A DNA stretch of 64,000 bases from Dehalococcoidia bacterium. Lineage in GTDB: Bacteria > Chloroflexota > Dehalococcoidia > UBA6926. Shown here in pieces: positions 55,157-58,940 of this stretch. The stretch spans positions 448,001 to 512,000 of the forward strand of contig CAXXET010000004.1 in assembly GCA_963666115.2 (NCBI GenBank), written 5' to 3'. A program made the translations under genes and the position numbers. The stretch's first letter is position 1; each line of letters begins with the position of its first letter. Under the pieces are notes generated by a model that searched no databases, had not been told where the DNA came from, and was given only the letters and a program-made list of their open reading frames with translations.

Positions 55157-55199
55157 TGGTATTGCGTTAGGATGGAGAGGCGGCATGTGGAGGGGCGCT

Positions 55200-55472
55200 A
55201 TGACAACGCAAGATGAACTGTTGGAGCGAATCGGCTTCAATCCGGACATACTGGGCGGCAAGCCAATCATTCGAGGAATGCGCATCGCCGTTGAGCACGT
55301 TCTCGGCCTTCTTGCGGCCGGCATGTCCCCGGACGACATTCTTCGAGACTATGAAATCCTGGAACCGGAGGACATTCAGGCCTGCCTGGTGTACGCCCAC
55401 CGCTCACTCAAGGGTGAGCAGGTTTTCGCGCTCATCAAAGCCGCAGACCCCGCGAAACAGCCAATAGCGTAG
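55200..55472 (+). CDS. DUF433 antitoxin-like protein
   Basis: PDILGGKPIIRGMRIAV, EDIQACLVYA. Confidence 0.88.
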   Translation: MTTQDELLERIGFNPDILGGKPIIRGMRIAVEHVLGLLAAGMSPDDILRDYEILEPEDIQACLVYAHRSLKGEQVFALIKAADPAKQPIA

Positions 55473-55476
55473 CAAC

Positions 55477-55833
55477 GTGCGCTTTCTCCTTGACGCCTCA
55501 ACGTCTGCCCGACTATTGCGTCCTCTACTCGAGGGCCTTGGGCACGACGTGAAAGCCGTAGTGGATTTCGACCGTCACGCGCAGGACGAGCATATCCTGG
55601 AGATTGCGGTAGCCGAAGACCGCATCCTCATCACCCTGGACAAAGATTTCGGCGATCTGGTCTTTGCCCGTGGGTTCGATCATCGGGGCATCGTTCGGCT
55701 TTTCGACGGGGACGCGGAGCAACAGGCAAGCGCGATGGCGCGGCTGCTGGAAGAATCCGCAGATGTACTCCATAGACGGGCCATGGTTGTCATTGACCCT
55801 GACAGAGTGCGGATAGGACGAACCGGCGCCTAG
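55477..55833 (+). CDS. DUF5615 / VapC45-like PIN protein
   Basis: RFLLD, GHDV, DEHIL, ILITLDKDFGDL. Confidence 0.85.
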   Translation: MRFLLDASTSARLLRPLLEGLGHDVKAVVDFDRHAQDEHILEIAVAEDRILITLDKDFGDLVFARGFDHRGIVRLFDGDAEQQASAMARLLEESADVLHRRAMVVIDPDRVRIGRTGA

Positions 55834-55945
55834 CGTGATGGCCGGACTTGCGCACAAACTTGACCTTTTGCCCCGTTCGGCGTAGCGTCCACTCTATACG
55901 TGGGCGGCGCTGCTGAAACGCTGCGCGGCCGATTGGAGGAACGTC

Positions 55946-56794
55946 ATGACGAGGATCGTCAGTATTGAAGAGGCGGGAAATCGATTCAGGGACGGGATGC
56001 TCATCGCCACCACGGGCGGCAATGACCGCTCCTCGATGGCGCTGACGCGGGAAATCGTGCGGCGGGGCATCAAGGATCTCACCCTCGTTTTCACACCTGC
56101 GGGCGGTCTCCAGGGCGACATGCTCATCGGCGCGGGCGCCGTCACGGCCATCGACACCGGCTCCCTCACCTTCGGCGAGCGCGGCTTTGCGCCGAACTAC
56201 CGCCGTGTTGCCAAAGAGGGAGGCATCGCCGCGCTGGACAGCACCTGACCCGTCACGCTCACAGGGCTCCAGGCTGGAGCCAACGGCGTGCCGTTCATCC
56301 CGTCCCGCGGCGTGATCGGCACCGATCTGGTCAACCTCCATCCCAACTGGAAGATCATCGAAGACCCCTACAACGAGGGCCATGACATCCTGCTGGTTCC
56401 GGCTATCCGCCCGGACATCGCCATGATCCACGCCTTCAAGGCGGACCGGAACGGCAACGTCCTTGCGCCGAGCCACGAGGATCGCATGGTTGCGCAGGCA
56501 AGTGACAAGGTGCTCGTGACCGTCGAGGAGATCGTCGACTATGACCTCTCCGAAGACCCGCGCGGCGGCTTCCTGGTTCCGTGGCCGTTCGTCAGCCTCG
56601 TCGTCCACGCGCCACAGGGGTCCCACCCCGGCGGCATGCAGCCGTACTACGAGGCGGACAACGAGCACTTCGACCGGTACATGGAGGCGTCCAGAACTGC
56701 AGACGGGTTCAACGCGTACCTCGACGAGTTCGTGCGCCGGCACACCGAGGACGAATACCGCGAGATGGCGGCGCGCGTCGCCGTGCCTGCCTAA
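55946..56794 (+). CDS. CoA-transferase alpha subunit (GctA/PcaI-like), 282 aa with in-frame UGA at codon 101 (probable selenocysteine)
   Basis: ORFs 55946-56248 and 56288-56794 are in one frame; readthrough gives ALDST-U-PVTLTGLQAGANGVPFIP; PAIRPDIAMIHAFKADRNGN, APQGSHP. Confidence 0.82.
56254..56290 (+). promoter_or_regulatory. Putative bacterial SECIS element
   Basis: Lower stem CACGCT/GGCGTG, internal loop, upper stem GGCTCCA/TGGAGCC, G-containing apical loop starting 24 nt after UGA. Confidence 0.7.
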
Positions 56795-56821
56795 GCAGAC
56801 GGACAGAGCCGCACAAACTCG

Positions 56822-57565
56822 ATGCCGTTTCAGTCGGACGACTACACCATCGGCGAGTTGATGGCCACCCGCATCGCGCGGGAGGTTCGAGACGACACAT
56901 ACGTTAGCTCCGGCGCGGCATCGCCCGTGCCGATGGCGGGTGTTCTCCTGGCGCAGGAGACGCACGCCCCGGACATGATTTACGTCCCCATTGGCGCGTC
57001 TAACCCTGAACTCAACCTCATCAGCGGAAAGGAAGTCTTTGACCTCGCCCAGCGTGGCAGGCTGGACATCTTCTTTCTCGGCGGAGCGCAGATTGACGGC
57101 CACGGCAACATCAACCTGACCACCATCGGCGACCATGACAGGCCGGACGTGCGCCTCCCGGGCGCGGCGGGCTCCGGGATGCTCTACTTCATGACGAATC
57201 GCATCATCCTGTTCCGCCTGGAGCACACGCCGCGCGTCTTCGTGGAGAACGTGGACTTCATCACGTCCGCCGGCTCCAGCGGGGAACGAATTGAGCGCCC
57301 CGGCGGCCCTCATATGCTCATCACCAACATCTGCGTGATGATGTACCAGAGTGATGACAAGAAGTTCCGGCTTGAGTCCGTCCACCCCGGCGTCACCGTC
57401 GATGAGGTGAAGGACAACACCGGGTTCGAGTTTCTCATTCCCGACGACGTGCCGGTGACAACTGTTCCGACGCCGGAGCAGCTTGGGCTGCTCCGCGGCT
57501 CCATCAAGGACCGCGTCGGCGGCGAGTATCCGGGCTTCGTCGCGTCAGGGGGATTTGGCGGATAA
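56822..57565 (+). CDS. CoA-transferase beta subunit (GctB/PcaJ-like)
   Basis: FLGGAQIDGHGNINL, RLPGAAGS, FVENVDFITS, SVHPGV, NTGF. Confidence 0.88.
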   Translation: MPFQSDDYTIGELMATRIAREVRDDTYVSSGAASPVPMAGVLLAQETHAPDMIYVPIGASNPELNLISGKEVFDLAQRGRLDIFFLGGAQIDGHGNINLTTIGDHDRPDVRLPGAAGSGMLYFMTNRIILFRLEHTPRVFVENVDFITSAGSSGERIERPGGPHMLITNICVMMYQSDDKKFRLESVHPGVTVDEVKDNTGFEFLIPDDVPVTTVPTPEQLGLLRGSIKDRVGGEYPGFVASGGFGG

Positions 57566-57749: not shown

Positions 57750-58940
57750 ATGATCGCAACGGAAATCGCCGAGCGGGGAATGGGCCTGGGCTTTGAAGAC
57801 GAAGCGCCGGAATTCAAGCCGTTGCGGCGCGCATACGGGTTTGAAGAGGTAGCCATCGTCCCGGGGCAGGTCACCGTCAACCCGGAGCAAACGGATATCA
57901 GGCTCTCGATGGGAGACCGCATTTTCGAGCTGCCGATACTCGCAGCAGCGATGGACGGCGTGGTTGACCCCGCCTTTGCTGCCACGTACTCCCGCCTGGG
58001 CGGGCTTGCCGTGCTGAACCTGGAGGGCGTTCACGGGCGCTACCCCAACCCCGAGGAGGTTCTGCAAGAGGTAGTCGAAGCCCCCGCCGACTCCGTTACG
58101 GCCACCCTCCAGCGCATCTACTCCGCCCCGCTCAGGGAAGAATACGTCGGCATGACCATCGAGAAGATGAAGGCGCTCGGCGCGACCGTTGCCGTTGCCG
58201 CCACCCCTGCCAACACCAAGCAATTCGTCGGCGCCGTCGTTGAGGCTGGGGCGGACTATTACGTCTGCCAATCCACGGTCACGACCGCGCGGCATATCTC
58301 GTCCAGCCCGGTTGGGCTGCATTTCGACGATCTCGTGGGCCGCATTCATATCCCCGTCATCGTCGGCAACGTCGTCGGTTATCACCAGACGATGGAGCTG
58401 CTGCACACCGGCGTCGCCGGCGTCCTGGTCGGCGTCGGCCCGGGCGCGGCCTGCACCAGCCGCGAGGTTCTTGGCATCGGCGTGCCGCAGGTCACGGCGA
58501 CCATTGAGACCGCCGCCGCGCGCGACGAATACCACCGCCGCACGGGACGCTACGTTCCGATCATCACCGACGGCGGCATTCGCTCAGGCGGCGATCTATG
58601 CAAGGCGCTTGTGGCGGGCGCGGACGCCGTGATGCTTGGTTCCATCTTCGCCTCGGCGGAAGAGGCGCCGGGCAAGGGCTATCACTGGGGAATGGCGACG
58701 CCGCACCCCGCCCTGCCGCGCGGCACACGGGTGCGCGTGGGCGTCCGGGCAACGCTGAACCGACTCCTCTTTGGCCCGACGGACCGCACGGACGGCACGG
58801 AGAACCTCGTCGGCGCAATCCACACCGCTATGGGCATGTGCGGCGCGGAGACCATCCGCGAACTGCAACAGGCGGAGATGATTGTCGCCCCCGCCATCAA
58901 GACGGAGGGCAAGCAGCTACAGATGGCAGGCCAGGTGTAG
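57750..58940 (+). CDS. GuaB3-family IMP dehydrogenase-related protein
   Basis: RRAYGFEEVAIVP, AMDGVV, VLNLEG, GVGPGAACTSR, HWGMATP..LPRGTR; no CBS domains. Confidence 0.9.
   Translation: MIATEIAERGMGLGFEDEAPEFKPLRRAYGFEEVAIVPGQVTVNPEQTDIRLSMGDRIFELPILAAAMDGVVDPAFAATYSRLGGLAVLNLEGVHGRYPNPEEVLQEVVEAPADSVTATLQRIYSAPLREEYVGMTIEKMKALGATVAVAATPANTKQFVGAVVEAGADYYVCQSTVTTARHISSSPVGLHFDDLVGRIHIPVIVGNVVGYHQTMELLHTGVAGVLVGVGPGAACTSREVLGIGVPQVTATIETAAARDEYHRRTGRYVPIITDGGIRSGGDLCKALVAGADAVMLGSIFASAEEAPGKGYHWGMATPHPALPRGTRVRVGVRATLNRLLFGPTDRTDGTENLVGAIHTAMGMCGAETIRELQQAEMIVAPAIKTEGKQLQMAGQV

Follow-up and report, generated by a model that had tools for sequence, protein, structure and literature searches.

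The window analysed here is a stretch of 64,000 nucleotides (nt) from the genome of a Dehalococcoidia bacterium (Chloroflexota; assembly GCA_963666115.2, contig CAXXET010000004.1, positions 448,001 to 512,000 of the forward strand), and coordinates are those of the window unless another contig is named. On its forward strand, at 55946..56794, lies a gene of 282 codons for a protein with the fold of the α subunits of coenzyme A (CoA)-transferases and related enzymes of the GctA, IpdA, and AibA type. Translation of the gene shows that its codon 101 is UGA (56246..56248). Comparison of the gene with its relatives indicates that this UGA is almost certainly a selenocysteine (Sec) codon equipped with its own RNA hairpin, and not a lesion. 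The interpretation as a whole, namely that the gene is intact, that UGA 101 is read as Sec, and that the product is the α subunit of an enzyme with a CoA-transferase fold acting on acyl-CoA, is considered highly probable.

Reading frame and conservation of the UGA codon

The α gene starts with the ATG at 55946, 6 nt downstream of a Shine-Dalgarno-like GGAGG sequence (55935..55939, forward strand), and ends with the TAA at 56792-56794. Open reading frame (ORF) prediction yields two pieces in one shared frame, 55946-56248 (100 amino acids) and 56288-56794 (168 amino acids). As the frame is open from 56249 onward, the GTG with which the second ORF begins is merely the first start-like codon. In a preliminary description of the window, it was proposed that the two ORFs are parted solely by the TGA at 56246-56248 and that read-through would give a full-length protein of 282 amino acids with no further lesion. 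Both points are borne out by the ORF list and the translation: the TGA is the sole in-frame stop inside the gene, and a single match to PF01144 (CoA_trans; 52 bits) spans residues 6-220 of the read-through product. The gene for the β subunit (56822..57565, forward strand; 247 amino acids, GctB/IpdB/AibB-like; PF01144, 77 bits) follows directly, an order seen in 79 of 80 related loci, and the PF01144 fold is thereby encoded in two side-by-side subunits as in class I CoA-transferases of the GctAB type. The genome (2.07 Mb in nine contigs, 63% G+C) uses TGA as an ordinary stop, since 653 of its 1489 ORFs of at least 300 codons end with this codon; a change of the code across the genome, which the preliminary description had already discounted, is therefore not at issue.

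Relatives of the gene were sought in 401 Dehalococcoidia genomes, a set that includes one unpublished genome (G257) in all its tallies. Among the matches listed, those with an E value of 2e-52 or better were taken as strong; they comprise 53 genomes carrying the gene with one in-frame TGA and five matches without TGA. Inspection of each of the 53 carriers at the codon level placed the TGA at the aligned codon in all of them, and TAA or TAG was never seen there. Once related loci were added, the Sec form was represented by 54 distinct protein rows with 36-94% identity to the window protein. In the five strong matches without TGA, the aligned codon specifies cysteine (Cys), as TGC in four and TGT in one. 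The same residue occupies the column of residue 101 in all 19 full-length database homologs aligned and in all 60 non-TGA loci from Alpha- and Gammaproteobacteria, Nitrospira, and others. Retention of an in-frame UGA at one codon across orthologues and Cys in the homologs that lack it are both features of selenoprotein genes. The surrounding motif, D-S-T-U-P in the window protein, reads D-x-T-[U/C]-P in the family, with D-N-T-U-G in some Dehalococcoidia. The homolog alignment confirmed the motif D-x-T-C-P...GLQA...PF.P that had been given for relatives in the preliminary description, and the pairing of UGA with Cys anticipated there was found as well, the residue in homologs being an invariant Cys and not Trp or a variable residue.

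Substitution analysis of 23 coding sequences (CDS) of 282 codons showed that purifying selection acts on both halves of the α gene. The non-synonymous pair fraction was 0.081 against a synonymous fraction of 0.338 for codons 1-100, and 0.131 against 0.317 for codons 118-282. Over the 13 codons from the TGA to the next start-like codon, no amino acid change at all was observed. The nine entries of the public protein collection closest to the gene product (58-99% identity) are without exception C-terminal pieces of 162-180 amino acids; the remaining 111 among the matches listed measure 244-292 amino acids and share 38-47% identity. As the nearest relatives are fragments only, annotation pipelines evidently split the α gene, as had been expected. 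Weaker, paralogous matches (E values of 1e-33 to 1e-36, about 33-35% identity) in five genomes (G175, G234, G340, G363, and G143) each contain one TAG or TAA, which could be the terminal stop codon, reached where the alignment ends.

The RNA hairpin downstream of the UGA codon

Minimum free energy folding of the 65 nt from the UGA, together with sequence comparison, identified a stem-loop resembling the upper part of a bacterial selenocysteine insertion sequence (SECIS) at 56265..56281 (forward strand). It consists of 7 base pairs (GGCUCCA/UGGAGCC) closed by an apical loop GGC (56272-56274). The stem begins 16 nt 3' of the UGA, a distance that fits the range of the bacterial SECIS model, and the first G of the loop lies 24 nt after the UGA.

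The hairpin was compared across 45 distinct 54-nt segments of Sec forms and 63 Cys forms. In the Sec forms, the seven upper pairs are formed in 302 of 315 cells. Compensatory changes occur at two of the pairs: pair 20-36 is GC in 21 forms, UA in 15, CG in 4, GU in 1, UG in 1, and other in 3, and pair 22-34 is CG in 29, GU in 14, and AU in 2. At column 36, a third codon position where the changes are synonymous, the base follows that in column 20. When the 3' partners were shifted by 1-3 columns, the share of paired cells fell from 75% to 30-41%. Each of the 45 Sec forms makes five to seven of the seven pairs, whereas none of the 63 Cys forms makes more than four. Codon choice in the stem differs accordingly: the Ala codon GCT is used in 40 of 45 Sec forms versus 3 of 63 Cys forms, and the Leu codon CTC in 29 of 29 Sec forms versus 3 of the 52 Leu codons of Cys forms. 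In the 23 CDS, codons 106-117 form the 12-codon window with the lowest synonymous rate of the gene (0.093; overall 0.31), and codons 107-111 are invariant. Of the 45 distinct Sec forms, 40 have the hairpin core CCAGGCUGG, and each of the remaining five departs from it by a single base. Covariation, codon choice, and the synonymous minimum all point to a stem-loop under selection, with a G in its apical loop, soon after the UGA.

In the preliminary description, a two-stem hairpin had been drawn with its apical G 24 nt after the UGA. The upper stem-loop of that model is upheld by the covariation and the Sec-specific codons; the lower stem did not fare as well. A possible pairing of 56254-56259 with 56285-56290 (forward strand; 56254..56290 in all) appears in the minimum free energy fold, but only 68.5% of its cells are paired among the Sec forms, and this weakly kept stem was not counted in the element.

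Selenocysteine machinery and other selenoproteins

The genome encodes SelA (452 bits), SelB, SelD with an in-frame TGA of its own, and one tRNA-Sec, so that the selA, selB, selC, and selD genes whose presence the preliminary description had left to be checked are all there. Only one tRNA with a TCA anticodon was detected, and it was typed as tRNA-Sec. SelA was found in 53 of 53 genomes with the TGA form versus 300 of the 401 Dehalococcoidia overall, although these genomes are related and not independent trials. Three genomes have only the Cys form among their strong matches. Two of them, G128 and G108 (81% and 95% complete), have no SelA match at an E value of 1e-30, and the third, G087, has SelA. 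The missing SelA in the first two would fit a replacement of Sec by Cys upon loss of the Sec trait.

Searches with known selenoprotein families revealed five further genes with one in-frame TGA, all outside the window: three for AhpC/TSA proteins (C6:445029-445403, C7:157096-157452, and C7:156421-156777), one for a DsbA-like protein (C3:8833-9378), and the selD gene (C6:420976-421899). Hairpins follow the UGA of all five at similar distances and with a different sequence. These SelB/SECIS-dependent genes resemble the α gene in that the UGA aligns with an invariant Cys, a hairpin with an apical G stands at the usual distance, the complete selA/selB/selC/selD set is present, and pipelines split the gene. 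At four of the six UGA sites of the genome, that of the α gene included, a CCN proline codon comes right after the UGA. The α subunit of formate dehydrogenase (FdhA) had no match above the family cut-off in the genome (best score, 37.8 bits); the Sec trait of the lineage is thus kept by other selenoproteins. In a family search, the CMD family had no TGA-containing member in the genome. A genome-wide scan for in-frame TGA codons by codon-usage score was dropped, as it returned 243-1132 candidates depending on the threshold and scored the short upstream part of SelD near zero.

Given this machinery, the UGA at codon 101 would be decoded as Sec by the standard route, which involves tRNA-Sec, SelA, SelD, and SelB. 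SelB, whose binding we infer, would presumably be brought to the mRNA by the stem-loop at 56265-56281, which starts 16 nt past the UGA.

Protein family and predicted function

Both subunits have relatives of known structure. For the α subunit, the chains 1POI_A, 5MZW_A, and 6CO6_A were retrieved with E values of 1e-21 to 1e-24 in single-sequence and 1e-31 to 1e-38 in profile comparisons, and the further IpdA entries 6COJ and 6CON are also among its nearest solved structures. Relatives of the β subunit are 1POI_B, 5MZW_D, and 6CO6_B. The product of the α gene would thus form part of an α/β enzyme with the class I CoA-transferase fold and a single invariant Cys/Sec. At the column of residue 101, the α family has Sec or Cys, whereas IpdA has Glu, GctA has Gln, and AibA has Gly.

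The glutaconate CoA-transferase GctAB of Acidaminococcus fermentans (1POI), whose name is the source-database label of the Cys forms, shares the fold and the subunit arrangement (E value of 2e-24 for α and 2e-24 for β). Glu54 of GctB is described as the catalytic glutamate of class I CoA-transferases, a position taken by Cys56 in AibB (PMC7756340). This glutamate is unmatched in the β subunit: the 79 aligned β sequences read Y-V-P-I-G-A-S, V-S-L-L-G-S-R, and similar in this region, and no acidic residue is conserved at the site. As the β subunit lacks the transferase glutamate, the residue on which the CoA thioester/anhydride is formed in class I enzymes, "CoA-transferase" is probably the wrong activity. 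Of the earlier designation as a CoA-transferase α subunit, the fold therefore stands, as judged by PF01144 and the relatives in the PDB, and the transferase activity probably does not. By this alignment, the enzyme probably modifies acyl-CoA rather than transferring CoA.

Two relatives with the same fold provide precedents. AibA/AibB, the 3-methylglutaconyl-CoA decarboxylase of Myxococcus xanthus (5MZW), is the best profile match of the α subunit in the PDB (8.3e-38). AibAB is described as having a CoA-transferase fold without carrying out CoA transfer, its Cys being proposed to act as a general acid (PMC7756340). In AibAB this Cys56 is in the β subunit, at the site of the old catalytic glutamate, whereas the Cys/Sec of the present family is in the α subunit; at the AibB Cys56 site the alignment shows a gap in the window's β subunit, with a gap or a hydrophobic residue in the family. 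The second precedent is IpdAB, the COCHEA-CoA ring-cleaving hydrolase of steroid catabolism (6CO6, 6CO9, 6COJ, and 6CON), for which E values of 1e-21 (single sequence) and 3e-31 (profile) were obtained. IpdB is described as having Gly57 at the site of the catalytic glutamate, and IpdAB as lacking transferase activity (PMC5380842). IpdAB and the present enzyme are alike in that the transferase glutamate is missing from β and a special residue of α occupies the same alignment column: in both single-sequence and profile alignments, residue 101 aligns with chain position 117 of IpdA, which is the sole difference between 6CO6_A (E) and 6COJ_A (A) in the aligned part. Identity to IpdAB is low, however, the alignment being significant yet distant, and no steroid-catabolic genes were seen among the neighbours scanned in the window or in the proteobacterial loci. 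Together with the Sec/Cys in place of Glu at this column, this means that the enzyme is not an IpdAB orthologue, although it may work in an analogous way.

Apart from the residue 101 site, the α subunit contains no Cys, and the single Cys of the β subunit is not conserved. A CxxU or UxxC redox pair is therefore absent, and the protein is not of the usual thiol-redox selenoprotein type. Like IpdAB and AibAB, the enzyme would act on acyl-CoA by C-C cleavage, decarboxylation, or isomerisation, with Sec/Cys 101 as the likely catalytic nucleophile or base.

Alternative explanations

Several observations weigh against the interpretation favoured here. In the 63% G+C sequence, the energy of the predicted fold does not stand out from that of shuffled sequences (z = -1.0; 27 of 200 shuffles are as stable), and as these single-sequence statistics are non-significant, the case for the hairpin relies on the comparative evidence. 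In the poorly retained lower stem, two pairs cannot form in 18 and 29 of the 45 Sec forms, and some Cys forms make hairpins of 4-5 base pairs nearby. Part of the upper stem encodes the conserved peptide L/V-Q-A-G, so coding constraint contributes to its conservation. Because the carrier genomes are kin, their Sec forms representing about six lineages in the tree, counts such as 53/53 overstate the number of independent observations. With regard to function, the lack of a catalytic glutamate in β was judged by sequence alignment within a variable stretch, the Glu at position 117 of IpdA is presumably the catalytic base Glu105, with 6COJ as its variant, and the neighbours in the window give no hint of a substrate. 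The comparative data, moreover, show that the UGA is recoded and do not give the identity of the residue inserted.

This last point favours the best surviving alternative, in which the UGA is read as another amino acid, either Cys through a tRNA-Sec-like tRNA or Trp or Cys through a near-cognate tRNA, to give a full-length protein without selenium; Cys does function at this site in relatives. Such decoding is nevertheless improbable in a genome that holds the complete standard Sec set, including SelA and a Sec-containing SelD, and whose sole tRNA with a TCA anticodon was typed as tRNA-Sec. The hairpin, at the distance expected for SelB, is also maintained by selection, and the Cys-only genomes G128 and G108 lack a SelA match, with G087 as the one that has SelA.

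Slightly less probable still, and regarded as very unlikely, is a conserved split gene, in which translation would stop at the UGA and a C-terminal chain of 168-181 residues would arise by re-initiation, so that the enzyme would consist of three chains and contain no selenium. Gene callers predict exactly such pieces, the nine closest relatives in the database are C-terminal fragments of 162-180 amino acids, and a start-like codon occurs 6-14 codons past the TGA in many lineages. These start-like codons are, however, ordinary conserved Val or Met codons that are also present in Cys forms, and amino acid conservation extends over the codons from the TGA to the next start. A split gene would further leave unexplained why the stop is always TGA (53/53) and never TAA or TAG, why it stands in place of the family's single invariant Cys, and why a Sec-specific hairpin with compensatory changes lies 3' of it in carriers that all have SelA.

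A pseudogene or an error of assembly or sequencing, which a lone in-frame stop resembling a nonsense mutation in one genome might suggest, is for practical purposes refuted by conservation, the TGA being present in 54 distinct orthologues from independent assemblies. Purifying selection on both halves also speaks against it, as do contigs (88-99% alike) of two DNA and two RNA-library runs that span the site, with no change at 56246-56248 among the 40 difference rows listed. The TGA, about which confirmation had been sought in the preliminary description, is genuine. The contigs, which by their records stem from sponge and marine metagenomes, bridge the TGA into the β gene, those of the two metatranscriptome libraries included; being assembled contigs, the latter are not proof of transcription.

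Evolutionary history

In a FastTree phylogeny of 123 α rows (54 labelled Sec and 65 Cys), the Sec forms fall into about six lineages of Dehalococcoidia, with no resolution at the base. Among these Sec lineages stands a single, well-supported clade that unites the 60 proteobacterial-type Cys rows. The Sec/Cys state requires at least four changes on this tree, from which no firm direction was drawn. The near-invariance of the hairpin core CCAGGCUGG across the Sec forms would fit a single origin of the Sec state.

Relation to catalogued selenoproteins

On comparative grounds, the α gene is almost certainly an unannotated selenoprotein gene of a family absent from the published selenoprotein catalogues. 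Table 1 of a 2026 review, which covers 119 prokaryotic selenoprotein families and subfamilies, contains no PF01144 entry or CoA-transferase name (PMC13188914). The α family thus falls outside the families of that table, and, unlike selenoproteins of the usual thiol-redox type, the α protein has no second Cys. Term searches of the main text of the BSepDB paper (PMC13326102) and of the SelCysML paper gave no CoA-transferase. In the part of the BSepDB supplement that precedes the family list, "transferase" and "glutaconate" do not occur, and the 16 matches to "CoA" are, in two passages, organism names (PMC13326102). No report of a CoA-transferase-type selenoprotein was found in a full-text literature search, whose hits were judged mainly from titles and the openings of abstracts. 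NCBIfam release 20.0 offers no model specific to the α protein.

About one in eight of the sampled Dehalococcoidia genomes (53/401) carries the gene, and public protein sets hold only fragments of it, so that mis-annotation of this locus affects a sizeable and abundant lineage of marine and sponge-associated bacteria. Thiol-redox proteins make up the majority of bacterial selenoproteins. If true, a lone Sec in an enzyme acting on acyl-CoA would extend the range of chemistry in which selection favours selenium. The position of the Sec/Cys also points to the probable catalytic residue of a large and so far unstudied family, represented by 339 database relatives annotated as "glutaconate CoA-transferase subunit A", which, from the aligned β sequences, probably does not transfer CoA. 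Residue 101 offers a direct handle for finding the reaction of this family.

A more comprehensive proposal is put forward tentatively, its joint probability falling somewhat short of even. It holds that the protein would be the first selenoenzyme with a CoA-transferase fold, that it would belong to a hitherto uncharacterised family of acyl-CoA enzymes, mechanistic cousins of IpdAB with a lone catalytic Cys/Sec in α and a non-redox carbon chemistry, and that the Sec form would be the older one in Dehalococcoidia, the Cys form of Proteobacteria and Nitrospira being derived.

Gene neighbourhood

Beyond α, β, and opposite-strand shadow ORFs, no neighbour cluster is common to the Sec-form and Cys-form loci, and a scan by hand of three proteobacterial and Nitrospira loci found only β in common. 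Of the 60 proteobacterial-type Cys loci (L056-L115), 30 have a gene for a family III CoA-transferase (PF02515, about 400 bits) directly after β, 27 encode an acyl-CoA dehydrogenase close by, and 20 encode a molybdopterin-binding dehydrogenase subunit. The first two of these enzymes would supply an acyl-CoA substrate, which, together with the missing β glutamate and the alignment of residue 101 with the IpdA variant position, argues against a working CoA-transferase. The neighbourhood may be a conserved catabolic module.

In the window, a gene for a GuaB3-family protein related to IMP dehydrogenase (TIGR01304, 400 bits) lies on the forward strand at 57750-58940, 185 nt 3' of β; no sign of an operon shared with the α and β genes was seen. 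The window also holds a RecF-like ATPase gene as a neighbour. The opposite strand carries an ORF of 531 amino acids (55790-57385) without a match to any family, a shadow ORF of this G+C-rich DNA. Directly 5' of the α gene, on the forward strand, lies a DUF5615 gene with a weak Mut7-C RNase match (55477-55833), itself directly preceded on the same strand by a DUF433 gene (55185-55472; 86 bits), and the layout of these two genes looks like that of a toxin-antitoxin pair.

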